Source of the DNA: Shigella phage ESh26
Reading direction: 5' to 3' (one strand)
Sequence record: ON528736
Length of the DNA: 64,000 nucleotides
Under the pieces are notes generated by a model that had not been told where the DNA came from, did not search any database, and was given only the letters and a program-made list of their open reading frames with translations. Positions 24,102 through 50,493 of this stretch are shown in pieces; within the stretch, counting starts at the first letter, position 1; each line of letters begins with the position of its first letter. The position numbers and the translations under genes are program-made.

Positions 24102-24111
24102 AATTTCCTCA

Positions 24112-24315
24112 TTAATTCATATTGCGTTTAATAACTTCAGCAACTTCTAGTAGTTCATCTTTAGTTGCAGTGTCAGATTGAATTTTATCTCTAATATCCT
24201 TAAAGCGGTTTTTAAACTCTTCGGCTTCTCCCATATCGAAAAAGCGTTGAATGATTCTATATTCTCGATGAACTGCTTTATCAAAAAGTTCTAAATTTAC
24301 TTTATATGATTTCAT
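24112..24315 (-). CDS. Hypothetical protein (rIIA.1 position)
   Basis: 67-aa ORF downstream of an early promoter. Confidence 0.6.
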
Positions 24316-24340
24316 TTCAATATCCTCATTTGCCCAATTA

Positions 24341-24370
24341 ATTATACCACATCCTTGTGGTAAAGTAAAC
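24341..24370 (-). promoter_or_regulatory. T4-type early promoter upstream of rIIA.1/rIIA (overlaps gene 39 stop)
   Basis: Minus strand GTTTAC-18 nt-TGG-TATAAT; spacer contains ccaca/tgtgg palindrome. Confidence 0.65.
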
Positions 24371-26187
24371 TACTGGCTCATCCATTCTTTACGAAGGTCA
24401 GCATTATCTCCCATGAGCATTTCAAAAAGCTCTTTCCAGTTCTCAGGAAGTTTAACAACATCATATACTGGGTTTTGAATCATCTCACGATATTCAGATT
24501 TTTCCAAAGAGCCAAGTCCCTTAATATAACGGATGCTATGTTTAGGTAGAGCATCTTTGGCACTCTCATATTCAGCGACTGTATAAAACCATTCTTGTTT
24601 TTTACCGACCTGAGCGATGATTACAGGAGTTTTGACGAAACGAATTCTTCCTTGTTCAAACAGTTCTGGCCAATTACTAAAAAATCCGAGCAGAGAAGGA
24701 TAAATGCTTCCTAGACCATCATGGTCAGCATCGGTCATAATAGCAATATTATGATAATTCAAGTTTTCAGCTTTTTCACCAAGAACTAATCCAGTGATTG
24801 CGCAAATATCAAACAGTTCTTTGTTTTTAAGCATATCAGCATATGACATACCCCAACTGTTGAGAACTTTACCACGCAATGGATAACCACCATGAAGTTC
24901 TTTATCACGAACATCAATGAGATATCCGATAGCAGAATCACCCTCAGTCAAGAAAAGAGTCGTGTCAGCATCTTTACCACAAAGATTCGCTTTAATATGT
25001 TTATGAACCTTAGCTTTAGAAGCCTTTTTAGCTGCTTTAGTTTCTGCTGCCTTTTCTGCCGCCAATTTACGAGCCAAGGCAGCTTCAATAATTGGCATTA
25101 AAATTGCTTCATTATTTAAAATAGCGCGTGAAATCTTTTTAGCATCAAGCTGAATATGACTACGAATTTCACCAAATGGAGAAGTCAAACGCTCTTTAGT
25201 TTGAGAATCAAATCGCATGTTTTTCATATCACGAACAAACATGACGATAGTCAAACATTCTTTAACACGTGCTTTAGTTACATCAATTTTGAACTTGCGT
25301 TTGATTTGTGGAATAAGGTCTTCACAAATATCATCCATAACACAATCAATGTGATGGCCACCATTCTTAGTATGAATGTTATTGACGTATGTTAATTGAC
25401 GAAAACCATCCGGTGAACGACCAACCGCAATAGAACAATTTTCTTGTTCTTGAACAATAGCATGCTCATCATATTGGCGTGCATATTTCTTAAAATTACC
25501 CTGAACCTTTTTACCGTTAAAGGTAAATTGAATATCAGGATAAACTACTGCAAGTGTCTGGAGACGATCTAATGTAATGTCAAGATAAACTTGAGATAGC
25601 TCATTAGTTTCAAATGACATAAAATCAGGAATGAAAGTAACACGAGTTCCTTTCCATTTTCCGGGAATATCTTCCCATGATTTATTTTCCATGCCATTTG
25701 AACAACGAACTACAATATTATTTTGACCGTCGCCAGTTTCACCGACAAACATCACAGAAAAAATGTTAGTTAAACTAGAACCAACACCATTCATACCGCC
25801 AGTGACGCGTTCTTTGTCATCACCAAAGTTACCACCTGCTTTTGGAATAGTCCAGGCAGCAACAGGACCAGGAATTTCTTCACCAGTAGGTGTTTTAACC
25901 ATCGCCTGTGGAATACCGCGACCGTTATCTTCAACTGTTACTTGATTGTTTTTGATAGTAACATTAATTTTATTTGCGAATTTAAACTTAGTACGAATAC
26001 CTTCATCTACTGAGTTATCGATAATTTCATCAATAAGCTTAACAAGACCAGGTACATACTGAACACTTTCCCATTTACCAAACAGAAAGCGCTCATGCAT
26101 TTCATTAGCAGAAGAACCAATGTACATGCCGCTACGCTTTTTGATATGTTCAATATCGCTCAGAATTTTAATTTCATTCTTAATCAT
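24370..26187 (-). CDS. 39: DNA topoisomerase II large subunit gp39, unsplit (includes the region that is a separate gene 60 in T4)
   Basis: ORF track 606 aa starting at GTG; ATG one codon in gives 605 aa; GHKL ATPase N-terminus plus TOPRIM-like EGDSA motif in one frame. Confidence 0.9.
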   Translation of the reverse strand: MIKNEIKILSDIEHIKKRSGMYIGSSANEMHERFLFGKWESVQYVPGLVKLIDEIIDNSVDEGIRTKFKFANKINVTIKNNQVTVEDNGRGIPQAMVKTPTGEEIPGPVAAWTIPKAGGNFGDDKERVTGGMNGVGSSLTNIFSVMFVGETGDGQNNIVVRCSNGMENKSWEDIPGKWKGTRVTFIPDFMSFETNELSQVYLDITLDRLQTLAVVYPDIQFTFNGKKVQGNFKKYARQYDEHAIVQEQENCSIAVGRSPDGFRQLTYVNNIHTKNGGHHIDCVMDDICEDLIPQIKRKFKIDVTKARVKECLTIVMFVRDMKNMRFDSQTKERLTSPFGEIRSHIQLDAKKISRAILNNEAILMPIIEAALARKLAAEKAAETKAAKKASKAKVHKHIKANLCGKDADTTLFLTEGDSAIGYLIDVRDKELHGGYPLRGKVLNSWGMSYADMLKNKELFDICAITGLVLGEKAENLNYHNIAIMTDADHDGLGSIYPSLLGFFSNWPELFEQGRIRFVKTPVIIAQVGKKQEWFYTVAEYESAKDALPKHSIRYIKGLGSLEKSEYREMIQNPVYDVVKLPENWKELFEMLMGDNADLRKEWMSQ

Positions 26188-26214
26188 CACTTATCCTCGT
26201 TTGGTTTCGGGAAT

Positions 26215-26240
26215 ATTATACTCCGGTAATCATAAAGCTA
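26215..26240 (-). promoter_or_regulatory. MotA-dependent middle promoter for gene 39
   Basis: Minus strand tAGCTTTA (MotA-box-like) - 12 nt - TATAAT, about 25 nt upstream of gene 39 ATG. Confidence 0.5.
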
Positions 26241-26256
26241 AAGGCCCGAAGGCCTT
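26241..26256 (-). promoter_or_regulatory. UUCG-tetraloop hairpin
   Basis: Minus-strand RNA AAGGCC-UUCG-GGCCUU, 1 nt from upstream ORF stop. Confidence 0.6.
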
Positions 26257-26529
26257 TTATTTAAAACGGATAGTCGAATCCTTGAAGAATAGACCAGAAC
26301 ATACGGTTCCTTCTACTTTCTGCCCGGTAGGTCCAATAGCACGAAATCCAGTATGTTGGAAATCATTTTCAGAGCAACCGAACCAATTGTATCCAGTGAT
26401 TTCAATATTAGTAAACCCACTTGAATACAAAACTTTGGTTGCATTATCAGCATCAGTACATCCTGCTAAAGACACTGCTAATACTAATGCCGCGATAGAA
26501 CGATTAACATATTTCATAATTTCACTCAA
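26257..26529 (-). CDS. Putative lipoprotein (90 aa)
   Basis: Signal peptide with lipobox MKYVNRSIAALVLAVSLAGC. Confidence 0.55.
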   Translation of the reverse strand: MSEIMKYVNRSIAALVLAVSLAGCTDADNATKVLYSSGFTNIEITGYNWFGCSENDFQHTGFRAIGPTGQKVEGTVCSGLFFKDSTIRFK

Positions 26530-26893
26530 ATTTAATGGCTTGAAGGAGACTAATAATTCTCAAGCGGCTTCTTTCATCTTTAACCGTAAAAGAAAGAGGG
26601 TCGCCAGATTTCATAGTGATAGTGCATTCAAAACTAAAATCTTCTGTAACTTCTTCGAAGAAGTCAAATTCTTCATCATAAATTAGAACATTACTCTGAA
26701 AACTGTGAAGAATTTTTCCATCATTTCCAGATGCTGTACTAATCATTGTAACATTATGGCCTTTCATATCTTCAACGATAAATTCGCTTGTAGATATTAC
26801 GGCATTAATAGAACCATTCCTATAAATAGAAGAAAGTAGATATTTCTTTTCTTCACCTTCGCGAACACGATATTTCTTACCGATTTTAAACAT
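26522..26893 (-). CDS. Hypothetical protein (123 aa)
   Basis: ORF overlapping neighbours. Confidence 0.5.
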   Translation of the reverse strand: MFKIGKKYRVREGEEKKYLLSSIYRNGSINAVISTSEFIVEDMKGHNVTMISTASGNDGKILHSFQSNVLIYDEEFDFFEEVTEDFSFECTITMKSGDPLSFTVKDERSRLRIISLLQAIKFE

Positions 26894-26895
26894 AA

Positions 26896-27072
26896 TTACC
26901 CTTTAAGTAAGTCGTAAAATCCACCATTCACATGCTTAGGAGCAGAAGGCCGACGAGTAGACAGACGATGACATTTAGGGCAAACATCATTTTCTCGTTC
27001 AGAAATCTTTTTAATTTTTTCATATTCATGCCCGCAATCTTCGGATTGGCATTTATAATCATACATTGGCAT
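26896..27072 (-). CDS. FmdB-like zinc-ribbon small protein (58 aa)
   Basis: Hand-translated MPMYDYKCQSEDCGHEYEKIKKISERENDVCPKCHRLS...; two CxxC pairs with typical MP-x-Y-D/E-Y-K-C start; below track cutoff. Confidence 0.5.
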   Translation of the reverse strand: MPMYDYKCQSEDCGHEYEKIKKISERENDVCPKCHRLSTRRPSAPKHVNGGFYDLLKG

Positions 27073-27074
27073 AA

Positions 27075-27494
27075 TTATTCCTTAAAGTGTGCTTTCAACA
27101 TCTGATACAAGGACCATGCCTGTTCATTATTTTCAATAGTAACTTTCATGACAGGAAATGCTGTGAAATCTTCTATTTGTTCTTGCTCTTCCTGCTCTTG
27201 CTCTTCAGCTGCCTGATATGGATTTTCAACTTCATCAAAGAACTCAGCTTCGTTAGTAGAAAGCCAGATAAAGTTTTCATCAAGGATATCACCATGTTTT
27301 GCATATCCAATTGTGCCAGTAAATGACATAATTTTAGTAGGACGCCCAAGATAATCAGCATCTAAAATTTTAAAAGGATGCATACCTAAACGGCGCGCAT
27401 AGATTCCATTATCAGTATGGTCTTTAATAAAATTTTCTTGAGCTTGTTTATTTTTAAATTGATACCATTTATTAACTTCAAATTTAATAGCCAT
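27075..27494 (-). CDS. Hypothetical acidic protein (139 aa; goF position)
   Basis: ORF with poly-Glu/Gln stretch [12 protein letters not shown]. Confidence 0.5.
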
Positions 27495-27709
27495 TAATAA
27501 ATTTCCTTCCAGTAAGTTGTGCCATCTTCAGTAATTTCACGGAATACACCGTAAATTGGTTGTTTATCGCCGACTTTCTCATACACATAAACCGAAGTCA
27601 AGTGAGTAAACTTAACAGTATGTTCCTTTTGAACTACTACCAAATCTGGATCGAATAATACATCTTCAAATTCATCATTAGTGCAATTCTGAACAATTTT
27701 GCGTTTCAT
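27494..27709 (-). CDS. Hypothetical protein (71 aa; cef position)
   Basis: 71-aa ORF; T4 cef is about this size at this position, identity not verified. Confidence 0.45.
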
Positions 27710-27722
27710 TACAATTTCCTCA

Positions 27723-27992
27723 TTAATTGAACAGTGGAGCGATGCGTTTCAGAAGAGTAGCAGCACCTTTGGCGAATTTTACATCATGAAAAACAGTTTC
27801 TTCTTCCGTTACAACACGAGCTTTAATGTTTTCACAATCCCAATTTTTACGAACAATCTTCAAAAGCTGCAGTAAATCTTTACATTCAGCAATATCGATA
27901 ACACATCCACGAGAATCTTCCATTATCGCACGATAACCGTAAGCCATACCATAATCGTTGAAAGATTGTTCGATGATAATTAAGTTTTCCAT
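27723..27992 (-). CDS. Hypothetical protein (89 aa)
   Basis: Track ORF starts at TTG inside UTR; ATG at 27992 follows cassette SD ggagaataaa (MENLIIIEQSFNDYG...). Confidence 0.5.
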   Translation of the reverse strand: MENLIIIEQSFNDYGMAYGYRAIMEDSRGCVIDIAECKDLLQLLKIVRKNWDCENIKARVVTEEETVFHDVKFAKGAATLLKRIAPLFN

Positions 27993-28035
27993 TTTATTCT
28001 CCAAGTTGTTTTCTGTATCAGTAGTTGATATTGAT

Positions 28036-28065
28036 ATAGTACCATAATCAACTACTGATGTATAT
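28036..28065 (-). promoter_or_regulatory. Early promoter (cassette copy D) with -10 inside a 13-bp inverted repeat
   Basis: TGG-TACTAT extended -10, degenerate -35 (ATATAC), A/T-rich upstream; flanked by atcagtagttgat (28017-28029) and atcaactactgat (28047-28059). Confidence 0.55.
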
Positions 28066-28089
28066 AGTTTTATGAAAAAATTTTAAACT

Positions 28090-28587
28090 TTATGCACAGC
28101 GAGCTTTGCTATAGTGTTTAATCCAACTTTCAGGAATGACTTTGTATGTTCCTAAAAATACCGCGTTGTACAACTTAACGCCATCTTCTACCCACTGATC
28201 GGTAATGTATGCACACATAGCGCGAGTACGATGTTTTTGAACAACACCTTCCTCATCTTCAGTAAATTCGAATTCATAAGGAGCAACGAACTTAATAGCT
28301 TGACCGAGTTTCCACTTAAAGTCTACGCCTACATGCGAAGTATCAATCGTTTCAATTCCTTTAGCAGGAACAGCTTTCAAAAACGCAGACTCAAGAAATT
28401 TCGCACGAACATAGCCAAACTGAGGTTTAGACTTTCCATCTTTAGGAATGATACGCACTTTTACTTCAGAATCTTCATCTTTAACACCGTGTTTAAGCTG
28501 AATGCTTACAATTTCAACCAATTTTCCTGCTGCTTTAGAGCGGGATTTATCAGATACACGAGCTAATTCACCAATATTAATAATCAT
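28090..28587 (-). CDS. Hypothetical protein (165 aa; motB position), paralogue of 28664..29206
   Basis: C-terminal motif YITDQWVEDGVKLYNAVFLGTYKVIPESW shared with the next ORF. Confidence 0.5.
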   Translation of the reverse strand: MIINIGELARVSDKSRSKAAGKLVEIVSIQLKHGVKDEDSEVKVRIIPKDGKSKPQFGYVRAKFLESAFLKAVPAKGIETIDTSHVGVDFKWKLGQAIKFVAPYEFEFTEDEEGVVQKHRTRAMCAYITDQWVEDGVKLYNAVFLGTYKVIPESWIKHYSKARCA

Positions 28588-28663
28588 AGTTATCTCTCAC
28601 TTGTTAAAAAGATTTTATACTCCACAGGACCATTATACTCTGGTCCCAAGAGTTTGTAAACTA

Positions 28664-29206
28664 TTAATTCAAAATAGCTACCACTGCACTACGAGGTACT
28701 ACACTAAAATCACCCGCATGAACAACGTTCAGAAGTTCAACACCATCTTCAATCCACTGGTCTGTTACCCAACCACAGACCGAAATAAATGGGGTCTTGA
28801 TAGCTACAGCACGAGTTAGAAGGTCAGTAGGATCGCATTCTTGGAAGAGGATAAGCTCTGCTTCAAAGACTATAGTTTTAATTACTTCATCATTATCTAA
28901 GCGTTGTGCTCGAATCACGTAAGCTTTATTCTTATCATGCCAATTACTTTTTGAAAAACTTTTAACCACAAACTCGCCTTCACCCAAAACACTGGTCAAT
29001 GCTTTATAACCCAAACTTAGTTCAGTAGTTTTAATTTCAGTTTCAACCAGTTTGTAGGTTTTGCCAATTTCGATGGTCCGAGCAGTCATAAAGGTTTCCT
29101 TAATTTCTAATGGTTTAACAAGAGTGCCGTACATGCTTGCTATATCCATATCAAATATTTTATCTATAGGATTTGGGGTGTATTCAGGATTATAATTAAA
29201 TTTCAT
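28664..29206 (-). CDS. Hypothetical protein (180 aa), paralogue of 28090..28587
   Basis: C-terminal WVTDQWIEDGVELLNVVHAGDFSVVPRSA matches the motif of the neighbour. Confidence 0.5.
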   Translation of the reverse strand: MKFNYNPEYTPNPIDKIFDMDIASMYGTLVKPLEIKETFMTARTIEIGKTYKLVETEIKTTELSLGYKALTSVLGEGEFVVKSFSKSNWHDKNKAYVIRAQRLDNDEVIKTIVFEAELILFQECDPTDLLTRAVAIKTPFISVCGWVTDQWIEDGVELLNVVHAGDFSVVPRSAVVAILN

Positions 29207-29208
29207 AA

Positions 29209-29721
29209 TTATCTCATTTCAATAAAATCTACAAGTTCAGCATGGGATTTGCGGAACATTACTTGGTGTCCGCCAATGATAACTTCATCTTCAGGAACTT
29301 CATAAATCGCAATGTACATTCCACGATCTTTTAAGTCTTCACGCTCTTCTCGGGTGAACCATCTCATCATATCATATTCATTAGCGAAAGCAAAATGATA
29401 TAATGAAATAAGCCACAATGGAATATAATTTTCAAATTGTGAATAATCTTTATTCCATTTAGTTTTAATAGCATCATTAGCATTTTCAACTAATAACTTA
29501 TCATCATGCGGAATAGGAATACTTTCATGGCTTTCATAATTATCGCTATGATGATGAAATGATGATGAATTAATACCACAAAATTTTAGCCAGGTTCGAG
29601 TTTTCATAGAATCAAATCCACGGTAAGGAGTTGATTGAACGCATAACTCTTGCCTAATTTTCACTATACCACTATCATCATTTAATGCGCTAAACGATGA
29701 TTCAACACGATAAATTTTCAT
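29209..29721 (-). CDS. Hypothetical protein (170 aa)
   Basis: Track ORF 29209..29760; ATG at 29721 (MKIYRVESSF...) sits downstream of early promoter. Confidence 0.5.
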   Translation of the reverse strand: MKIYRVESSFSALNDDSGIVKIRQELCVQSTPYRGFDSMKTRTWLKFCGINSSSFHHHSDNYESHESIPIPHDDKLLVENANDAIKTKWNKDYSQFENYIPLWLISLYHFAFANEYDMMRWFTREEREDLKDRGMYIAIYEVPEDEVIIGGHQVMFRKSHAELVDFIEMR

Positions 29722-29748
29722 TTTATTATCCTCAGTAGCTATGGTGTT

Positions 29749-29778
29749 ATAATACCACAACTAACCGAGGAAGTAAAC
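29749..29778 (-). promoter_or_regulatory. T4-type early promoter
   Basis: Minus strand GTTTAC-18 nt-TGG-TATTAT between dexA stop and next ORF. Confidence 0.6.
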
Positions 29779-29784
29779 AACTTT

Positions 29785-30468
29785 TTATCGTTTTGTTGGA
29801 AGAGAAAGAGGATCGCACTCTTCCTCTGACGGAGCATCTTCAAGACCCATAGCATATCGCAAAGCATACTTCATCATCAGGATGTCTTTCGCGCAGTCAT
29901 GAATAGAATCATGTGCAACGAATCCATCTAAAGTTCCCTTTGGAAGAGGACACGTGGTCATATCACGAACAAGCAGAAGTGCTTCAATTCTGGTACGAAT
30001 ATCACGCTGATTCCAGAATTTACAAGGTTCTAACTTAAACGTATCAAGCTCATTCTCAGATACACCATTGAGACGCTGAATATCGCGAATGAGATCAACT
30101 AAAATAGGAAAATCAAACGACATTCCACGGCACCAGCCTTGAGATTTCCAAGGATCGATGTTATGTGCATTGATGTAATCATTAAATTTTGCAATACCAT
30201 CGATAGTGCTTACATCTTCATCTGATGGTGCAATATTTTTTCGAGCTTCAGGAGATTGATTTTTCCACCATTCGATAGTGCTTTTAGTAAAAAGACGATG
30301 TCCTTTTTGGCTTTTTAAATCAAACTTGATTTTAATGCCGCGTGAAACTAATTCATCAAATGTTTCAACTACTTCCGGATTAGGGTCAAAGGCAATAACA
30401 GCCAAATCAATAACAGCTGCCTTTTCACCGCTTCCCATTGTTTCAAAATCTATAATAAAATCAAACAT
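29785..30468 (-). CDS. dexA: Exonuclease A (DEDDh 3'-5' exonuclease)
   Basis: 227-aa ORF MFDFIIDFETMGSGEKAAVIDLAV... with D-x-E exonuclease motif; size as T4 DexA. Confidence 0.9.
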   Translation of the reverse strand: MFDFIIDFETMGSGEKAAVIDLAVIAFDPNPEVVETFDELVSRGIKIKFDLKSQKGHRLFTKSTIEWWKNQSPEARKNIAPSDEDVSTIDGIAKFNDYINAHNIDPWKSQGWCRGMSFDFPILVDLIRDIQRLNGVSENELDTFKLEPCKFWNQRDIRTRIEALLLVRDMTTCPLPKGTLDGFVAHDSIHDCAKDILMMKYALRYAMGLEDAPSEEECDPLSLPTKR

Positions 30469-30743
30469 TAAATTTTCCTCGCTAAATCGCGAATTTGACC
30501 TACAGTATAATCTTGGATATAAACTTTATTAATGGGCTCATCAATAAATTTTGCCATAGATTCAATATCTTTTTGTATCTCTTCAAGACTGTATACTATC
30601 TTTAAAGCTTTTTCGCGAATAGTAACATTATCAGGTCCTGAATTTTCTTGGATGACAGCTTTAACATTTGTCATAAGAGATTTAAACTGCTGCAAACTTA
30701 ATTCAATCATTAATAACCGCCTTATAAAGATGGCTAATTTCAC
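30468..30743 (-). CDS. Hypothetical protein (dexA.1 position)
   Basis: 91-aa ORF. Confidence 0.45.
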   Translation of the reverse strand: MKLAIFIRRLLMIELSLQQFKSLMTNVKAVIQENSGPDNVTIREKALKIVYSLEEIQKDIESMAKFIDEPINKVYIQDYTVGQIRDLARKI

Positions 30744-30963
30744 CTAAAACATAATCACTGATTGTAACAGTTTTCACTTCACCGCAAAAGAATTCTAATG
30801 CAATCAAATCTCGTTCAATTTCTTCCAATTGAAGCATTAACTTGCCTGATTCAATTTTCACGTTTTTGCGATTTTTACTATAAGCTATTTCATAAATTTC
30901 GCTCACTTTATCTTGAAGTAGATAAAACTGGTCTTTAGTTATTTCCACGAATAGCTTCCTCAA
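30703..30963 (-). CDS. Hypothetical protein (dexA.2 position)
   Basis: 86-aa ORF. Confidence 0.45.
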   Translation of the reverse strand: MRKLFVEITKDQFYLLQDKVSEIYEIAYSKNRKNVKIESGKLMLQLEEIERDLIALEFFCGEVKTVTISDYVLGEISHLYKAVIND

Positions 30964-31195
30964 ATTTAATCAGCAGCTTACAGACACTTTCATCTAGCGT
31001 AATTACCGTGTCTGTGTTACTGTGATATGATTGTTTTTCAATTCGTTTAATTGCTAGTATAGTATCACTTATAAGATTAAGCTTATAAAGGAGCTCAGCT
31101 CCTGTTACCATAACACTGAGGTTATCTTGCTTATCAGTATGCTTCTTTATACCATCTATTAGACGATTTAAATATTTTGAATTGATGTTAATCAT
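30935..31195 (-). CDS. Hypothetical protein (86 aa)
   Basis: ORF just downstream of dda. Confidence 0.45.
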   Translation of the reverse strand: MININSKYLNRLIDGIKKHTDKQDNLSVMVTGAELLYKLNLISDTILAIKRIEKQSYHSNTDTVITLDESVCKLLIKFEEAIRGNN

Positions 31196-31201
31196 ATATC
31201 C

Positions 31202-32521
31202 TCACACATAAAACACATCATAACGACCACGAGTGACACCAACATAAAGAAGCTGCTGAGCCAATTCAGCATCTGCATAATGAATACAAGGCGTATAGAT
31301 GAAAGCCCGGTCTACAGACATGCCCTGAGCTTTGTGGAATGTTGATGCAGGAAGTGCTTTCACTTTACTAAACTGTGATTTAGCATCCCAAAAATCACTC
31401 CACGGAGCTTTTCCACCTTTATTCCAATTTTTATAAGTTTCTGCCGTTTTACCTAAAAATAAGTTAAACTTATACAGCTCTTCATCGGATGAAATTATTT
31501 TAATCTTTTCACGATAATATTCATCATCGCCGTAAGTTTCTACTGTTAAATCCCAATGACGAATTAGATATTCTCCAGAAACACCACGAGCTTTAACAAA
31601 CGTTGATGTATACTCTGCTTCTATAATACGAACTAATTGTCCGTTATTAAAAATAATTTCTGACACAGGCTTTCCATCAATTTTATATGTTTTAATTAAT
31701 GGTTCCTGCATTACAATAATTTCACCAACGATAAAATCTTTATCAGTTTCAAAAATCTTTTTGCGAATAATGCTATTTAACTTATCAACAGATTTATTCG
31801 TAAATGCCATTACGCGATTTTCAAACAAATCATCTAGTGATTTTACGATTGAAAAATAATTTACCATAAAATCGCGTAAAGCGGTATCACCAGTAAATCC
31901 ACGTACTCCATGCCCGTCAACAACTTTATCATAAATCCACTTACCGTTGCGAACATCAGTAGCTACATCAATAATAGGAGCATTACTGCGTTTAACTTCA
32001 GTGAGTTCACACTGATAAAAATCTTTATGTGTAAAGAACGGACTGATATAAGCGGTGTTTTCTCCTGGGTCAACAGGTCTAATTTGCTTATTATCCCCTA
32101 TTCCAATTATAGTACACCACGGCGGGATAGTTGAAAGCAGAATTTTAAATAGCTTTCTATCATACATTGACACTTCGTCGCAGATTAATACTCTGCATTT
32201 AGCTAAATCCGGTACTTCTTTTTGTTCAAAAAGAACGTTTTCTTCATATGTTACCGGGTTAATTTTGAGAATACTGTGAATAGTACTCGCTTCTTTCCCC
32301 GATAGTTTTGAAAGAATCTTTTTAGCCGCATGCGTAGGAGCTGCTAAAATAATACCAGTTTCGCCTGTAGATATTAAGGCTTCAATGATGAACTTAGTAA
32401 GAGTAGTCTTACCAGTACCAGCAGGTCCATTAATAGTTACATGATGTTTCTTTTCTTTAATAGCCCTCATAACGATGTTAAAGGCATTTTTCTGGCCTTC
32501 TGTCAAATCATCAAATGTCAT
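31202..32521 (-). CDS. dda: Dda DNA helicase (SF1B)
   Basis: 439-aa ORF with Walker A GPAGTGKT and DEVSM Walker B; size as T4 Dda. Confidence 0.92.
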   Translation of the reverse strand: MTFDDLTEGQKNAFNIVMRAIKEKKHHVTINGPAGTGKTTLTKFIIEALISTGETGIILAAPTHAAKKILSKLSGKEASTIHSILKINPVTYEENVLFEQKEVPDLAKCRVLICDEVSMYDRKLFKILLSTIPPWCTIIGIGDNKQIRPVDPGENTAYISPFFTHKDFYQCELTEVKRSNAPIIDVATDVRNGKWIYDKVVDGHGVRGFTGDTALRDFMVNYFSIVKSLDDLFENRVMAFTNKSVDKLNSIIRKKIFETDKDFIVGEIIVMQEPLIKTYKIDGKPVSEIIFNNGQLVRIIEAEYTSTFVKARGVSGEYLIRHWDLTVETYGDDEYYREKIKIISSDEELYKFNLFLGKTAETYKNWNKGGKAPWSDFWDAKSQFSKVKALPASTFHKAQGMSVDRAFIYTPCIHYADAELAQQLLYVGVTRGRYDVFYV

Positions 32522-32829
32522 CGTAAATTCCCTGCAATTGGTATACTAACAATACGCCCAGTATCTAAAATTCGCCGATATAATCTTTGTGTGTCTACAT
32601 CAGGCTTAACATGTTTAACTTCTATTTTATTAAACCAAAACTTGCGTGGAGTCTCGACTAATCTCGGAATTCCCATACCTAAAGCTAGTCGATACTGATC
32701 TTTAAGAGTTGTAAATACTTTATCAGCAATCTCCCTTTCAAAAAATACAGCAGGGCGATGTTCATCAAGCGGAACTGGCACTGCAAATCCATCTTTATCT
32801 CTATACACTATCGCATATACATAAAACAT
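32518..32829 (-). CDS. Hypothetical protein (dda.1 position)
   Basis: 103-aa ORF, stop overlaps dda start. Confidence 0.5.
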   Translation of the reverse strand: MFYVYAIVYRDKDGFAVPVPLDEHRPAVFFEREIADKVFTTLKDQYRLALGMGIPRLVETPRKFWFNKIEVKHVKPDVDTQRLYRRILDTGRIVSIPIAGNLR

Positions 32830-32830
32830 A

Positions 32831-33577
32831 TTATCCTCGGATAAGTTTAAAAATTGAACAATTTAGCGGGTATCCTCTTTTCAGTTTAAGTTTATCAATA
32901 AAAGACAAGTTTTGATACCGCTCTACACCTTGAATAATTTTATCACACATATCATATTGCATTTCTGCTTCTGACAACTTTTTCACAGTTTTCCAATCAG
33001 AGCCTTTAAGAAGAACGTTCAATTTAACAACTTCAGTGCCTTCTGCTATACGAGAACCATCAATACGAGCTTTGAGTGCTACAATCGTTAGCTTAATATC
33101 AGAGGTTTGTTTTGATTTAGAAAGCTGAGAAATGTGTTCAATTCGGTTTTCACGTTTTTTCTGTATAGCTTTAATTTGATTATAAGTCTTTTTGATTTTA
33201 GCCCATTTCTTTTCATCTAAATTTAGTTTATGAACTTTTTTCGCAGATGAACGACCAATTCGCAAAGCAAATAAATCACGCTTTTCAATCAACTCTTCTA
33301 AAGTATAATCAGAACGAAATGTATTATACTTTTTCTTTACTGCAATAACATTCCCTTTAATGTATCCAACGTTATTATCAAAACGTTCTAATGATAATTT
33401 CTCTCCTTCAATACGATTATCAAAAGGTTCTCCAGAGTAAGCGCAAACTTTCTGATCTAAAATGTTCTTAATGTAATTGAAGTCTAAGTTAAAATCTTTA
33501 GAACGTCTTTTAGCAGATGCCTGAGTATGCTCTAGACGACGTGTAATTTTACGAATTTGATTTTTAGACAGTTTCAT
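32831..33577 (-). CDS. srd: Srd (sigma-related early protein)
   Basis: 248-aa basic ORF at the position of T4 srd between dda.1 and modA; identity by synteny and size. Confidence 0.6.
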   Translation of the reverse strand: MKLSKNQIRKITRRLEHTQASAKRRSKDFNLDFNYIKNILDQKVCAYSGEPFDNRIEGEKLSLERFDNNVGYIKGNVIAVKKKYNTFRSDYTLEELIEKRDLFALRIGRSSAKKVHKLNLDEKKWAKIKKTYNQIKAIQKKRENRIEHISQLSKSKQTSDIKLTIVALKARIDGSRIAEGTEVVKLNVLLKGSDWKTVKKLSEAEMQYDMCDKIIQGVERYQNLSFIDKLKLKRGYPLNCSIFKLIRG

Positions 33578-33606
33578 ATTTTTCTCACGGACGGTTAACT
33601 ACTTAT

Positions 33607-33636
33607 ACTATAACATTTTTACTTCAGCTTGTAAAC
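33607..33636 (-). promoter_or_regulatory. T4-type early promoter upstream of srd
   Basis: Minus strand GTTTAC-18 nt-TGT-TATAGT about 30 nt upstream of ATG. Confidence 0.6.
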
Positions 33637-33692
33637 AACTTTATGAAAAATGCTTTAAAACTTTCATGGTATAATGAATCTAAGTCCTTCCA

Positions 33693-34295
33693 TTATAGAT
33701 TAAATCCTTCAAAGTCAAGAGTATAGATAGTGTATGTTGAATACTTTTTATACTCGTATCTATCCGCAATTTTAAATACACTTCCAGCTGGTATCATTAC
33801 TTCTTGTTCATCTGAAACTAATTCCATATTACGATAGCGATGGCTATCTGGAAACTTAAAACTCGGGCTGTATTCTTTACAACGTAGAGCTTTTATAGCA
33901 TACTCCTGGAAATTAAACACCATAGGAGCTTTGAATTCAAAAATAACTTGTGTATTGTATTCTAATCCAGAAGCAAAATGTAGAGCTATATTTTTATCAT
34001 ATGAAGCTGATACTACTTTATCAAATGTAATAATATCAATTCCTTGATTTAACACCTGCTTAGTCTCAACTGGAACACCTCTCCAAAGAGGTTTATCGTT
34101 TGGAACCAAACGAGATTTGATTATTTCATTTAACCAAGAATGATCGTCTGGCTTATTAGTAATACAATGAATTAAAAGTTCAATTTCAGATAAATTAAAT
34201 CCTTCGGAAAGTAATTCTTCACGAATAGAAGCACGCACGGATGCATCCATTGATTTGATTTTAAAATCTTTTAATTGCATTGCTGAATATTTCAT
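33693..34295 (-). CDS. modA: ModA ADP-ribosyltransferase
   Basis: 200-aa ORF; size, position and paralogy with adjacent modB. Confidence 0.8.
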   Translation of the reverse strand: MKYSAMQLKDFKIKSMDASVRASIREELLSEGFNLSEIELLIHCITNKPDDHSWLNEIIKSRLVPNDKPLWRGVPVETKQVLNQGIDIITFDKVVSASYDKNIALHFASGLEYNTQVIFEFKAPMVFNFQEYAIKALRCKEYSPSFKFPDSHRYRNMELVSDEQEVMIPAGSVFKIADRYEYKKYSTYTIYTLDFEGFNL

Positions 34296-34915
34296 TCAAC
34301 TACCTCAATATCATACACTTTAAATGTTCCAAATGAATCGTGTAATTTTTCTTTTGAAATAGAAGTTATTTTATACTTTCCAATTGGAATCATCCATTCT
34401 TGTTCACGTACAATCATCATTAAGTTATCAGTACGTTCTGAATCTAATCCATCAGTATCTTCATATGTATACTTAAACTCAGTATTAGGAGAAGAAAGTA
34501 TAATATCGCTGATATGGTCAGAATAATTAAAAGCTTTATCAGTTTTTAAGCGAAATATTATTTCAGTGAAATATTCGGCATAAGAAAAAGAACACGCTGT
34601 ATGCAAACTAGTAGTAAATGAATCTACTCTGTTCGTTGAAAACACTTCTCCAACTTGTAAATCTTTAATGAGTTCTTTTGTCGATTTTGATATACCACGA
34701 TATAGCTGATAAGGCGATTTAGTTAAATGCTTTTTAACGATTTTATTCAACTGCTGATGAAGAGCTTCATTCTTTTTGGCTTCCATACATTGCCAAAGAA
34801 TTGACTGTTCAAAGTCAGTAAATTTTTCACAGACCTTTTTATACATATCATATTGAAAATCGACACTTTCAGCTTTTATAGATAATTGTTCAACATCTGC
34901 AAGATTAATAATCAT
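34292..34915 (-). CDS. modB: ModB ADP-ribosyltransferase
   Basis: 207-aa ORF; stop overlaps modA start; shares fold-level motifs with modA. Confidence 0.8.
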   Translation of the reverse strand: MIINLADVEQLSIKAESVDFQYDMYKKVCEKFTDFEQSILWQCMEAKKNEALHQQLNKIVKKHLTKSPYQLYRGISKSTKELIKDLQVGEVFSTNRVDSFTTSLHTACSFSYAEYFTEIIFRLKTDKAFNYSDHISDIILSSPNTEFKYTYEDTDGLDSERTDNLMMIVREQEWMIPIGKYKITSISKEKLHDSFGTFKVYDIEVVE

Positions 34916-34941
34916 GATAGCCTCCGTATACTTCAGAAGCT

Positions 34942-34971
34942 ATCATATCATTGTTAGGAAGGAAAGTAAAC
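34942..34971 (-). promoter_or_regulatory. T4-type early promoter upstream of modB
   Basis: Minus strand GTTTAC-18 nt-TGA-TATGAT. Confidence 0.6.
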
Positions 34972-34982
34972 AACTTTTTGAA

Positions 34983-35165
34983 TTATTTTGCCCAGGGAGC
35001 CCAGGGCGGAGGGTCAAGATGGTATGAAGCTAGTTCTTCTAGAAGAGCATCTGGGGCTTCAATTCCATAATTCTGTAATACTATACGGTACTCTTTCTTA
35101 TAATCACTAGAATCATTCTGGATATTCGTAGAATGATTATCTTCTAACATCTCAAATAAATCCAT
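34983..35165 (-). CDS. Hypothetical protein (60 aa)
   Basis: ORF. Confidence 0.4.
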   Translation of the reverse strand: MDLFEMLEDNHSTNIQNDSSDYKKEYRIVLQNYGIEAPDALLEELASYHLDPPPWAPWAK

Positions 35166-46270: not shown

Positions 46271-46651
46271 TCACTTAGTCAAATTTTTTACACATGAATT
46301 ATAAGAATTCACTACATACTCCATCGGAGCATTTTTACCGGTACGCCATTGGTAATTATTAGCCCAATTAGCCCAAAGTTCGGCGCAGTAGTTTTCAATT
46401 TTTTCTTCGCGTGTAATTACATCTGAATTACGATATGCTTGAGCAGATTCATCTGGACGAATAGCTTCGTCAAAATTCGCCTGCATTTGTTCTACTGTCT
46501 GTTTTGGAGCTTCTTTATAACACTTGACGTTAGGATTATAAAATTTGCTTGAACAGTTTACAATTTTTCCTACATCAGATTGATTTACTACCGGTCCTTG
46601 AGCTACACAGCCAGTAAGACCCAATGTAATAACCAAAATAGCAATTTTCAT
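46271..46651 (-). CDS. Putative lipoprotein (126 aa)
   Basis: Signal peptide with lipobox MKIAILVITLGLTGC. Confidence 0.55.
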   Translation of the reverse strand: MKIAILVITLGLTGCVAQGPVVNQSDVGKIVNCSSKFYNPNVKCYKEAPKQTVEQMQANFDEAIRPDESAQAYRNSDVITREEKIENYCAELWANWANNYQWRTGKNAPMEYVVNSYNSCVKNLTK

Positions 46652-46661
46652 AATAATTTCC

Positions 46662-46919
46662 TCAAATACAAGCAGTAATTACTCCAGTAGTGCTTACACA
46701 GGTATTACCTAATTGAACACCAAGCGTTCCATTAGTATTCATATGAAGATTATCATCAATTTTTGTTGATACTTTACCATTCATGTGAATAACAGTATTA
46801 GATTCAATCACATTCTGAGTGTCATTTTCAATATCAATAAATGGAACAGCTGCTAATGCAACTAGAACAACTGCTAATGCAACTAAACACGCTGCTAAAC
46901 AACCATAAACAATTTTCAT
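46662..46919 (-). CDS. Hypothetical membrane/secreted protein (85 aa)
   Basis: Track ORF starts upstream inside UTR; ATG at 46919 follows cassette SD ggagaataaa; MKIVYGCLAACLVALAVVLVALAAV... Confidence 0.5.
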   Translation of the reverse strand: MKIVYGCLAACLVALAVVLVALAAVPFIDIENDTQNVIESNTVIHMNGKVSTKIDDNLHMNTNGTLGVQLGNTCVSTTGVITACI

Positions 46920-47100: not shown

Positions 47101-49797
47101 TCAGCCAAACAGGAAGTCTAACGAAGCTTTTTCCTCATAGTCCATACCTGCCGATTCACACATACCCGCAAGCGGTTTAACAAACGATTTTTGGAACAAA
47201 GTTGAGTAGTCAATCCAAGACAGTACGTCAGAACGAATTTCTTTTGGAAGTTCTGTACCCGATGGCCAAGCAATGCACTTATCACCAAATGGATTTCCTT
47301 CACGCAATGGAAGAACCATTACCTTATTTCCATCCAAAATTGGAGCTACACCTAAACCACTAACAGCTCGACGATAAGTTAGCACACCACGAATATGGAA
47401 CGGACATTTAAATCCTGGCCACCCTTTATCATCATATTTCGCTATATCGTTCGCAGTTTTTACTTCAGCAATAACTTTATAGTCAAGTTGACGATATTCT
47501 TTCTCAAAGTTCTTGTAATATTCTTGGACAGACTCTTCACCTTCCTGAAGAATACGACGAATACTTTCTTCGAGAGCTTCTTGTACTGCTTTTGGTGTTG
47601 AACTCTGTTGAGTTTCCATACCCATAATTTTTAGATGCGGTTCGGCAAATCGCTTATCTTCCATATCATAAACGTTCAGAGCATAACGTTTTTTCGCTTT
47701 CCAAAATCCACCAACACCCTTTGAACCAAGTGGAGGGCAAGAAATAGCTTCACGGTCCATATGCATCAGATGCTCGCGGTTATTCATATAATCACATAAC
47801 TCACGATATGCAACATCAATCATAGGTTCCATCTTTTTCTTACCAAACTGATTCATGAATTCAACTAAATCATTTTGTTCTTTAAAGCGATCAAGACCTA
47901 CTTTTTCAATAACTTTATCTACACAGACATATACCGAATCAGTATCACCTGCTGCGATGAAATCTTCACCATTAGTTCCACATACTTTATTCAGATATTC
48001 ATTAATTTTGCGAGCAATCCACTGAATACCGACTTGACCGAAAATTGTGATAGCAGTAGCATTTCGCAAATCATAGTAACGGAAATGAATATTACCAAGA
48101 GCACCATAAAGACTGTTAATAAGAATTTTACGGTTCAGCTGATTTGTGTTAGCAAGTGTAGCTGCTTTTTCACATTCTTCGATCAGACTATTAAGAACAG
48201 ATTCGGTGTAATTCGATAATTCGTTTAAGAAATCATCACTGAACTTAACATATCGTTCAACTTCTGGTTTAGTTGAGCAAGACCCTGCACCTTTCATAAT
48301 AATCTTTTTAATAGCTTCGGCATTCATTTCTTCCGCGAACATTTTCTTTTTCCAATCTTTACGCTGGAAAAATACTTTAGCGATTTCCTTTGGAATGATA
48401 CCTTCTTGGTGCTTATCATACATCCATCCATTCGGAGAGCAAGAATATTCATCACTTGGCTTAGGAGCTGTTCCTGCGATATATTCATGAATTGGATGAA
48501 CTTTAAACTGCCCGCGAATAGTCTCAGGACTAATGTTAACCTGACGAATAATGCTAGGATACAGAGACGTCAAGTCAAAACTCATAATGTATCGACGAGC
48601 AATCGGTTTAGGTTCAAATACAAATGCACCTGGAAAACTCTGTTTAACGTGCGAACCTTGTTGAGGAATAACCTTATGTTCACCTTTCAGTGAGTTAAAA
48701 ATAATAGCATCCCAAGTTTTAATAGGACTCATTACACCAGAAAAAGGCATTTTAGCGTAATAAGACATACTTAAAACTAGATCGATAAACCCACGAATTT
48801 TATCAATTGCTTGAACTGATTCTACGTCAATGATGTTATAACTAATGTATCGTTGATGATTAGTCTCACGAAGTTTATTAATAGGACCATCGTACGGCAA
48901 TTTACCTTTTTTGGTTTCATGTTGAGCAACTGATTCCAAAGAGAACGATGGCAAATTAGTAAATGCGAACTTCTTGTATAAATCTAAATAATCAAGAATA
49001 GATACGCCATCAATAGAATAAATTTCTTTGCTACCGTACATATTTTGAATTAGTTTAGATTTTACTCGACCGATTGGAGAGAAGCGTTTCATACTGCGTT
49101 CACCGAGAACCATTTTAACACGGTTCATGATATACGGAACGTCAAATCCCTCAATATTCCAACCAGTAAAAATAGCAGGTCGTTTCTGTTCCCAGAGATT
49201 AATATATTCCATGAGCATATCACGCTCATTATCGAATGGCATATAAATTACTCGGTCAAGAATTTCTTGAGGAACTTCATCACCACCTTCACAGTCAAGC
49301 TTAGCAGCTAACTTTGCATCCCATTTTGATACTGAACCGTACATTGAATTCAACAAATCAAAGACGTAAAAACGATCGTCAATTGAATCATAATGAGTGA
49401 TAGCATCAATTTCATATTCTGCTTTCATTGGGTCAGGAAATTTATCACCAGTAACCTCAATGTCACAGTTAGCTACACGAACAAATTTTCGGTCATAAAC
49501 AATTTCTGAACCATATGTATCACTGATATAAGCGAGTTTAAAATCGTTCATACCGAGAGCTTCGAGACCGATGTCTTCCATTCGCTTCATCCAGTCTCGT
49601 GCATCTTTCATTGATGGAAATTTTTGAGGAGCACAGTTTTTACCATAAATGTCTTTGTATTTTGACTCTTCCTTACAATGTCTAAACATAGTCGGAAGAT
49701 ATTCTACTTCACGAGTACGTTCCTTTCCGTTTTCATCAATATAACGCTCAACAATATTATTTCCGACTGTTTCGATAGAGATATAAAATTCTTTCAT
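47101..49797 (-). CDS. 43: DNA polymerase gp43 (family B)
   Basis: 898-aa ORF, same length as T4 gp43; MKEFYISIETVGNNIVERYIDENGKERTREVEY... Confidence 0.95.
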   Translation of the reverse strand: MKEFYISIETVGNNIVERYIDENGKERTREVEYLPTMFRHCKEESKYKDIYGKNCAPQKFPSMKDARDWMKRMEDIGLEALGMNDFKLAYISDTYGSEIVYDRKFVRVANCDIEVTGDKFPDPMKAEYEIDAITHYDSIDDRFYVFDLLNSMYGSVSKWDAKLAAKLDCEGGDEVPQEILDRVIYMPFDNERDMLMEYINLWEQKRPAIFTGWNIEGFDVPYIMNRVKMVLGERSMKRFSPIGRVKSKLIQNMYGSKEIYSIDGVSILDYLDLYKKFAFTNLPSFSLESVAQHETKKGKLPYDGPINKLRETNHQRYISYNIIDVESVQAIDKIRGFIDLVLSMSYYAKMPFSGVMSPIKTWDAIIFNSLKGEHKVIPQQGSHVKQSFPGAFVFEPKPIARRYIMSFDLTSLYPSIIRQVNISPETIRGQFKVHPIHEYIAGTAPKPSDEYSCSPNGWMYDKHQEGIIPKEIAKVFFQRKDWKKKMFAEEMNAEAIKKIIMKGAGSCSTKPEVERYVKFSDDFLNELSNYTESVLNSLIEECEKAATLANTNQLNRKILINSLYGALGNIHFRYYDLRNATAITIFGQVGIQWIARKINEYLNKVCGTNGEDFIAAGDTDSVYVCVDKVIEKVGLDRFKEQNDLVEFMNQFGKKKMEPMIDVAYRELCDYMNNREHLMHMDREAISCPPLGSKGVGGFWKAKKRYALNVYDMEDKRFAEPHLKIMGMETQQSSTPKAVQEALEESIRRILQEGEESVQEYYKNFEKEYRQLDYKVIAEVKTANDIAKYDDKGWPGFKCPFHIRGVLTYRRAVSGLGVAPILDGNKVMVLPLREGNPFGDKCIAWPSGTELPKEIRSDVLSWIDYSTLFQKSFVKPLAGMCESAGMDYEEKASLDFLFG

Positions 49798-49835
49798 AGA
49801 TATTCCTTAGTTTATAGCCCGAGTTATTAGGCTCT
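49798..49835 (-). promoter_or_regulatory. Gene 43 translational operator (gp43 autoregulation site)
   Basis: Minus-strand RNA GAGCCUAAUAACUCGGGCUAUAAACUAAGGAAUAUCUAUG: hairpin plus SD region matching the known T4 gp43 operator as remembered. Confidence 0.7.
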
Positions 49836-49856
49836 TAATATATTATACTCCAAATA

Positions 49857-49872
49857 AGGGGCCGAAGCCCCT
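49857..49872 (-). promoter_or_regulatory. UUCG-tetraloop hairpin upstream of gene 43 operator
   Basis: Minus-strand RNA AGGGGC-UUCG-GCCCCU. Confidence 0.6.
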
Positions 49873-49877
49873 TTGCT

Positions 49878-50114
49878 TTAAATTTCTATTGTACGACGCG
49901 ATATAACGGACTTGCCATCTTTATTTGTGGTTTTGATAATCGCATGAAATGCGAGCTGGTGCGGGTAAACTAATCGTTGGAATTCTTTTTGGAATTCTAT
50001 TTGTTTATCTTCCGGGAGGTCAAAAACCAGTTGGGTAGAAGACAGACCATATGTTTGTTTTAGATTTTCGAATATTAGAAAAGCTTCGGTAAACTGAATC
50101 TCTGATTGTGTCAT
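49878..50114 (-). CDS. Hypothetical protein (78 aa) between regA and gene 43
   Basis: Track ORF 49878..50135 starts at TTG; first ATG at 50114 (MTQSEIQFTEAFLIFENLKQ...); overlaps regA 3' end; weak SD. Confidence 0.35.
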   Translation of the reverse strand: MTQSEIQFTEAFLIFENLKQTYGLSSTQLVFDLPEDKQIEFQKEFQRLVYPHQLAFHAIIKTTNKDGKSVISRRTIEI

Positions 50115-50124
50115 ATAATTTGCC

Positions 50125-50493
50125 TTAATTACCAATCGTATATTTAGGAACGAGTTTCCATTCGTGTTTTTGTTTAAAAGAAATAACTCGGAAGTTATTA
50201 GTTAAATCTTTCATAAAAGTTCTTTGACCAGGAACGATTTCAATCAGTCCCCAATCTTCTAACAGCCACGCAATCGAATCACGACGAACTTCATCTTCTT
50301 CTGTCATTTCAACCTGACGGCCATCCATACGAAGCATTTCTTTAAAATGAACGATATAGTATAGTCCTTTTTTCTGAAGAATATGACAGGACTGATACAG
50401 AACTTTATCTTTATTATTAGCAATTCCCATACGAGTCAAGGTTTCTTTTACTTTCAGAAAATCTTCAGGTTTTTTAAGAGTAATTTCAATCAT
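50125..50493 (-). CDS. regA: RegA translational repressor
   Basis: 122-aa ORF MIEITLKKPEDFLKVKETLTRMGIANNKDKVLYQSCHILQK... recognised as T4 RegA. Confidence 0.9.
   Translation of the reverse strand: MIEITLKKPEDFLKVKETLTRMGIANNKDKVLYQSCHILQKKGLYYIVHFKEMLRMDGRQVEMTEEDEVRRDSIAWLLEDWGLIEIVPGQRTFMKDLTNNFRVISFKQKHEWKLVPKYTIGN

Follow-up and report, generated by a model that had tools for sequence, protein, structure and literature searches.

The window analyzed here is a 64,000-nucleotide stretch of the Shigella phage ESh26 genome (sequence record ON528736). The feature under study, orf43.1, occupies positions 49878..50114 on the minus strand and runs from an ATG at 50114–50112 to a TAA at 49880–49878, which confirms from the sequence the 78-codon ORF that an earlier note had proposed. 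Its 78-residue product would be slightly acidic (pI 6.1) and have a mass of 9.2 kDa. The upstream neighbor is regA, the gene of the translational repressor (50125..50493, minus strand; Pfam PF01818, 248 bits), which ends with a TAA stop codon at 50127–50125. The downstream neighbor is gene 43, the DNA polymerase gene (47101..49797, minus strand; 898 residues). The RegA protein of the window is 100% identical to T4 RegA, and its polymerase differs from T4 gp43 by three amino acids. The ORF is located inside the 45-44-62-regA-43 replication-gene cluster, as the earlier note had recognized. It also lies, as described there, in the regA–43 intercistronic region, but this region, counted from the regA stop codon to the gene 43 start at 49797, measures 327 nt rather than 330 bp. 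The claim that the ORF overlaps the 3′ end of regA is not borne out: 10 nt separate the regA stop codon from the ATG of the ORF, and only a mechanical extension to a TTG at 50135 (85 residues) reaches into regA. This TTG start was rejected, as it is without homologue support and relatives annotate the ATG. No paralogue of orf43.1 is present within the window.

The ORF is not new. It is the known T-even accessory gene orf43.1, represented here by its RB51-type allele. The protein matches the Pfam family PF25760 ("Phage RB18 ORF43.1 protein") with 106.3 bits (E 7.7e-31, profile positions 3–69 of 69; the curated gathering cut-off of this family is 27 bits) and PHROG 3826, a family of unknown function (E 5.4e-33). 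A CDS annotated at this position in phage ECML-134 encodes a protein 100% identical to that of the window. In RB51, the gene at the same position is annotated as "RB32ORF047c, similar to RB18 43.1" and its product shows 96% identity to the window protein. The ime09 annotation reads "gp43.1, uncharacterized protein ORF43.1, in regA 3′ region", the RB18 record names the gene "43.1", and other names in the family are RB32ORF047c, JS98 ORF047c and VR7ORF053c. Because three records (ime09, RB18 and RB51) already name the gene and Pfam has an entry for it, the suggestion of the earlier note that this might be an unrecognized extra ORF can be set aside.

The name orf43.1 is said to have been in use since early regA comparisons in T4-like phages, and the gene was reportedly first described by Miller & Jozwik in 1990 (J Bacteriol 172:5180) in a comparison of "conserved regA and variable orf43.1 genes". 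The window gene shares its sequence family, its position between regA and gene 43 and its downstream hairpin with orf43.1 of RB18 and RB51, and displays no substantive difference from them. The RB51-type allele, which the window carries, has a 10-nt spacer after regA, its own Shine-Dalgarno sequence and an N-terminal helix made longer by a six-residue insertion (QFTEAF). The RB18-type allele is 73 residues long and starts 1 nt past the regA stop codon.

When the 327-nt region was shuffled 5000 times with its composition preserved, an ATG-initiated ORF of at least 78 codons appeared in just 29 cases. The annotated frame has the best codon-usage score of all six frames, codon usage being one of the checks named in the earlier note. 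Homologues of 71–80 residues occupy the regA–43 interval in Tequatrovirus, Dhakavirus (IME341), Gaprivervirus (VR7), Moonvirus (CF1) and Kanagawavirus (IME523). In the window and in seven intact relatives, representing five genera, the gene is flanked by regA and gene 43, shares their strand and ends right before a hairpin, and tblastn matches reach phages of Salmonella and Edwardsiella. A core of the form LK..Y.L....(Q/E)..FDL.E..Q..FQ is kept across genera at 38–58% amino acid identity. In a set of 27 sequences K19, Y22, L24, F31, D32, L33, E35 and Q38 are invariant, conservation reaches at least 90% at F41, Q42, P51, F56, G67, R73, E77 and I78, and G23 and S25 are kept in most sequences only. 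In all pairs compared pN is smaller than pS, with dN/dS values in unsaturated pairs of 0.15 (RB18/ime09), 0.19 (IME341/VR7) and 0.41 (window/RB51, a pair with few changes). A chance ORF is thus ruled out by the shuffles, the codon usage and the selection data. Judged by its Pfam and PHROG matches, the excess of pS over pN across genera and a confident predicted fold, orf43.1 is a genuine protein-coding gene, in agreement with the earlier note. A full-text literature search by gene names and by the regA–gp43 region found no proteomic, ribosome-profiling or genetic study of any orf43.1 allele.

The great majority of orf43.1 copies in relatives are intact. Stops and frameshifts in related phages, which the earlier note held would speak against the ORF, are confined to a few decayed copies. 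These are of the RB18 type, namely truncations in JB75 (55 residues, 1168–1335) and PhiZZ23 (40 residues) and, in KK4/GADU22, a 127-residue read-through that crosses both the hairpin and the gp43 operator. The existence of such copies means that selection on orf43.1 is not strong everywhere, and a few decayed genes among mostly intact ones is the pattern that would be expected of a dispensable gene. These copies also show that orf43.1 is lost now and then by mutation, besides clean deletion. A different kind of length variation is seen in the middle of the gene, where a direct 12-nt repeat (GAATTCCAAAAA/GAATTCCAA; 49977..49997, minus strand, read from the sequence) encodes EFQKEFQ. Alleles of 74 residues (NBEco003, REP1) are missing exactly the four codons EFQK at this repeat, with the frame kept. 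The loss resembles in-frame replication slippage, and the repeat is a probable slippage site from which the 74-residue alleles arose.

The AlphaFold2 model of the protein, calculated from the alignment of 27 sequences, is compact and confidently predicted (pLDDT 92.6, pTM 0.79). It consists of an α-helix (residues 3–21), a loop, a second α-helix (residues 35–49) and a β-hairpin (strands 55–63 and 69–77). The loop is predicted to carry the pattern Y-G-L-S..(T/D)(Q/E)..F-D-L-x-E, in which invariance is limited to Y, L, F-D-L and E, and the second helix bears Q-x-EFQKEFQ. The predicted structures of alleles that are 46–47% identical in sequence superpose with TM scores of 0.87–0.92. The model shows no similarity to any solved structure in the Protein Data Bank, and a search of BFVD returned only members of the family itself. 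There was no match to the NCBIfam and PADLOC models or to Pfam and PHROG families other than PF25760 and the protein's own PHROG, and thus no homing-endonuclease or transposase domain was found. Neither a signal peptide nor a transmembrane segment is visible in the sequence.

An HMM search of 1.84 billion representative proteins recovered only ~9 clusters of the family, all of them from Tevenvirinae of enterobacteria. A repetitive protein of 3009 residues and two long proteins that emerged from the same search were taken as spurious matches. Two motifs of the loop were considered separately. The Y-G-L-S-x-T-Q segment might suggest a helix-turn-helix protein, but this candidate was rejected, as neither a helix-turn-helix profile nor a matching fold was found. 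The Q-L-V-F-D-L motif, considered as a clamp-binding peptide, is internal and falls in a confidently ordered segment of the model.

The junction between regA and orf43.1 (50115..50127, minus strand, read from the sequence) is formed by the regA stop codon and a 10-nt spacer, GGCAAAUUAU. The pentamer TAAGG (50127–50123), which overlaps the regA stop codon, is Shine-Dalgarno-like and is positioned 8 nt ahead of the ATG. Folding of the start region is weak (−5 kcal/mol, z −0.2) and the region is essentially unstructured. In the alleles other than the RB51 type, the start codon is located 1 nt past the regA stop codon (TAAT-ATG, TGAT-ATG or TAAT-GTG), and this spacing is the geometry of termination–reinitiation coupling. 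We infer that orf43.1 would be the last cistron of the 45-44-62-regA mRNA and that ribosomes finishing regA would go on to translate it, in the present allele across a 10-nt gap and with the help of its own TAAGG. The output of orf43.1 would then track the translation of regA, and would therefore be indirectly limited by RegA autorepression.

Direct recognition by RegA can also be considered. The AU-rich stretch AAAUUAUAUG at 50121–50112 resembles RegA sites such as those of gene 44 (AAAUUAUG) and rIIB (AAAAUUAUG) (PMC3014915). The initiation region of orf43.1 is AU-rich and unstructured and has an A-tract ahead of the AUG, as in the RegA-repressed T4 cistrons 44, rIIB and dexA, but the motif is common in this genome and the likeness proves nothing. 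There are 47 matches to the RegA-like motif in the window versus 35 ± 7 expected from shuffles, i.e. the motif is not rarer than chance, and the resemblance of AAAUUAUAUG carries little weight because the motif is so frequent in this AT-rich window. RegA control of orf43.1 is plausible, either indirectly, through coupling to the autorepressed regA, or directly, through AAAUUAUAUG.

Downstream of orf43.1, the first element is a UUCG hairpin, AGGGGC-UUCG-GCCCCU (49857..49872, minus strand; −13.1 kcal/mol), which begins 5 nt past the stop codon and is followed by UUAUUU. It was found where the earlier note had placed it, just past the ORF. In a small cross-genus sample, compensatory changes affect three of the six stem pairs, and the cells are 100% paired. 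Across Dhakavirus, Gaprivervirus, Moonvirus and Kanagawavirus the stem changes from GGGGC/GCCCC to GGGAC/GUCCC, GGGCC/GGCCC or GGAGCC/GGCUCC, and the loop is UUCG or UACG. In four aligned phages the sequence from the hairpin stem onward is near-invariant, with one variable position (T/C). Some relatives annotate the hairpin as a terminator. Its U-run is interrupted (UUAUUU) and a simple consensus terminator scan made no call on the minus strand. The hairpin is likely to be a terminator or an RNA-stability element of the regA transcription unit. The region 49600–50300 has no match to any Rfam family.

The hairpin is followed by a −10-like hexamer, TATAAT (49842..49847, minus strand). In Tequatrovirus, Dhakavirus, Gaprivervirus and Kanagawavirus it is kept as GAGTATAAT, or as GTAGTATAAT in the case of VR7, and it presumably belongs to a promoter of gene 43's own. 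Next comes the gp43 translational operator (49798..49833, minus strand), which comprises a hairpin and the ribosome-binding site of gene 43. The hairpin is 18 nt long (49833–49816), and has a 5-bp stem and an 8-nt loop of the wild-type sequence AAUAACUC. The Shine-Dalgarno sequence of gene 43, AAGGA, comes after it at 49808–49804. Both hairpin and loop agree with the published description of the T4 operator (PMC3014915), and the earlier note had identified this element correctly. From the UUCG hairpin to the ATG of gene 43, the window is identical to T4 over the aligned stretch save for one T/C difference 5′ of the operator hairpin.

The proposal that orf43.1 itself is under gp43 translational control does not survive this arrangement. 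The operator is 3′ of the orf43.1 stop codon, past the UUCG hairpin and the TATAAT hexamer, and this is not the placement required for autogenous control by gp43. Because the operator is part of the following unit, where the ribosome-binding site of gene 43 is the only one it overlaps, gp43 is not expected to repress orf43.1. A separate, sigma-70-like sequence, TTGACC-18-TAGAAT, is present inside orf43.1 (50023–49994, minus strand), and the alleles of RB18 and Dhakavirus have hexamers like these. An internal promoter was rejected, as such sites number 4 versus 4.5 in shuffles. The conservation of the hexamers is uninformative because they fall on the conserved FD and IEF codons.

In T4, T2 and T6, the regA stop codon is followed directly by the UUCG hairpin, and the window differs from them by the addition of the orf43.1 cassette. 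The regA–43 gap measures 78 nt in both T4 and T6 and 81 nt in RB69, and T2 has the T4-type junction. The remark on T4 in the earlier note is correct, as T4 has no gene here, and all four phages (T2, T4, T6 and RB69) are without exactly this cassette. By alignment, the T4 regA stop codon runs directly into GCAAGGGGCTTCGGCCCC, and the window contains 249 extra nucleotides made up of the ORF and a short leader. The cassette is bracketed by near-identical decamers in direct orientation, both read from the sequence and the alignment: the left copy, TTAAGGCAAA, is at 50119..50128 (50128–50119 as read on the minus strand) and the right copy, TTAAAGCAAA, at 49881–49872 on the same strand. T4 keeps a single fused copy of the repeat, TTAAG-CAA-GGGG, and its junction would fit a precise deletion between the two short repeats. 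Since the gene is found in several genera, its presence is probably ancestral and the null state of the T-even phages derived.

The frequencies of the three states of this locus were estimated with junction-spanning queries in which either side is too short to match alone. Of ~516 Tequatrovirus records with these flanks, the T4-type junction is present in ~251, the RB18-type junction in ~176 and the RB51-type allele in ~62–68 (~62 by junction, 68 by full-length matches). Compared with RB18, the window has a DNA identity of 97.5% in gene 62, 98.1% in regA, 57.0% in orf43.1, 96.2% in the region downstream of it and 96.3% in gene 43. At the protein level the RB51 and RB18 alleles are 42% identical. 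Their synonymous sites are saturated (pS 0.73), against a pS of 0.095 and zero amino acid changes in regA. The protein of the RB51 allele is closer to those of Dhakavirus (58%) and Gaprivervirus (52%) than to that of the RB18 allele (42%). Because identity drops in orf43.1 alone, the synonymous sites of the alleles are saturated and three states can be counted, the locus is a gene-sized cassette that has two old alleles besides its null state and is swapped by recombination at the gene boundaries. The gene orf43.1 is both dispensable and exchangeable, because T2, T4, T6 and RB69 are without the cassette and two diverged alleles are found in near-identical Tequatrovirus backbones.

Taken together, these observations are best explained if orf43.1, in its RB51 allele, is an accessory gene and the last cistron of the regA mRNA, and if its product is a dispensable protein-binding factor that confers a conditional advantage. 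The probability of this reading is estimated at about 0.6. The ORF43.1 protein would bind another protein through a conserved polar patch formed by K19, D32, E35, Q38, Q42, R73 and E77. Such binding would be stoichiometric, and the resulting advantage would depend on the host and the conditions rather than constitute a core replication function. A protein-binding role is the most likely one because no catalytic motif, nucleic-acid-binding signature or membrane segment is found in the protein. We infer the binding and the conditional-advantage parts of this reading from negative results, namely from the fact that the protein shows no similarity to anything of known function.

The strict adjacency of the gene to regA in each genus could instead reflect a functional tie to RegA or to the replisome. 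Its candidate partners would be RegA, gp43, the gp45 clamp and the 44/62 clamp loader, and by binding one of them ORF43.1 might tune either replication or translational repression, which we consider possible but rather unlikely. Such a partnership would explain a constant co-transcription and translational coupling of orf43.1 with regA. In its favor, orf43.1 adjoins regA upstream of gene 43 in all genera examined, with the 1-nt stop-to-start spacing, and its AU-rich start region resembles RegA sites. The loop sequence (T/D)(Q/E)-x-(L/V/I/F)-F-D-L, which we take to be loosely like clamp-binding peptides such as SLDFLF at the C-terminus of gp43, could be a further point in its favor. However, the FDL motif belongs to an internal, structured loop (pLDDT ~96) and not to a flexible terminus, and T2, T4, T6 and RB69 replicate and regulate normally without orf43.1. 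Furthermore, no co-variation is seen between the neighbors and the locus state, and this weakens the case for a tie specific to RegA or gp43. The same RegA protein is present in T4 (null state), the window (RB51 allele) and RB18 (RB18 allele), and gp43 differs at only 3 of 898 positions between T4 and the window. The two alleles of orf43.1 are themselves only 42% identical.

Somewhat less probable is a host-directed role. Here ORF43.1 would take over a host function or counter a host defense, and the null state and the two alleles would be the outcome of a host arms race. Such a race might leave behind what is seen here, where near-identical backbones carry the locus in three states and one allele replaces the other precisely between the ends of the gene. 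The restriction of the family to Tevenvirinae of enterobacteria (~9 clusters among 1.84 billion representatives) and the small, soluble character of the protein, which is without an enzymatic signature, are also compatible with it. Against this stand the lack of any PADLOC match and of any structural match in the Protein Data Bank. The saturation of synonymous sites between the alleles (pS 0.73) is a further counterargument, as it points to old divergence and recombination and not to recent positive selection. A broader formulation is given the same low weight. In it, the product of orf43.1 is either a coupled partner of RegA or the replisome or a host-directed, counter-defense factor, and the alleles and the null state are maintained by host-dependent balancing selection and exchanged as cassettes.

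The idea that the interval is untranslated (a non-coding spacer, a cis-acting RNA or DNA element or the remnant of a mobile insertion, with a fortuitous reading frame) could draw on the 78-nt spacer with which T4 works and on the sigma-70-like sequence inside the ORF, but it is effectively refuted by the comparative data: the frame stays open with conserved residues at 38–58% amino acid identity across genera, pN is well below pS, the AlphaFold2 fold is confident and compact, promoter-like sites occur at shuffle level, and there is neither an Rfam match nor a mobile-element domain.

The discovery value of the locus is small, as Pfam and PHROG each have a family for orf43.1 and hundreds of genomes carry an annotation of it. 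Its interest is modest and lies in a fold without a known relative inside the best-studied phage cluster for replication and translational control. The locus is also a clean natural gene-sized cassette, in which a null state and two alleles with 57% DNA identity are set in flanks that are 96–98% identical, and this makes an isogenic comparison of T4, RB18-type and RB51-type phages straightforward.

Two further observations concern the other side of gene 43. An 85-residue ORF with a hydrophobic N-terminal segment (MKIVYGCLAACLVALAVVLVALAAVPF) is found at 46665..46919 on the minus strand. The space that it fills extends from the gene 43 stop codon (47101) to an imm.1-like lipoprotein ORF (46271..46651) and is only 183 bp in T4. 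The ORF matches PHROG 4189, of unknown function, and relatives label it "putative membrane protein" or "immunity protein". A 551-nt query of this region hits three to four places in most genomes among the matches listed, and is thus partly repeated. In RB69 (24000–35000), the gene set downstream of gene 43 is quite unlike that of T4 and includes ORFs annotated as sugar-metabolism-like (arabinose-5-phosphate isomerase, phosphoheptose isomerase), which indicates that the flanks of the replication cluster are plastic.
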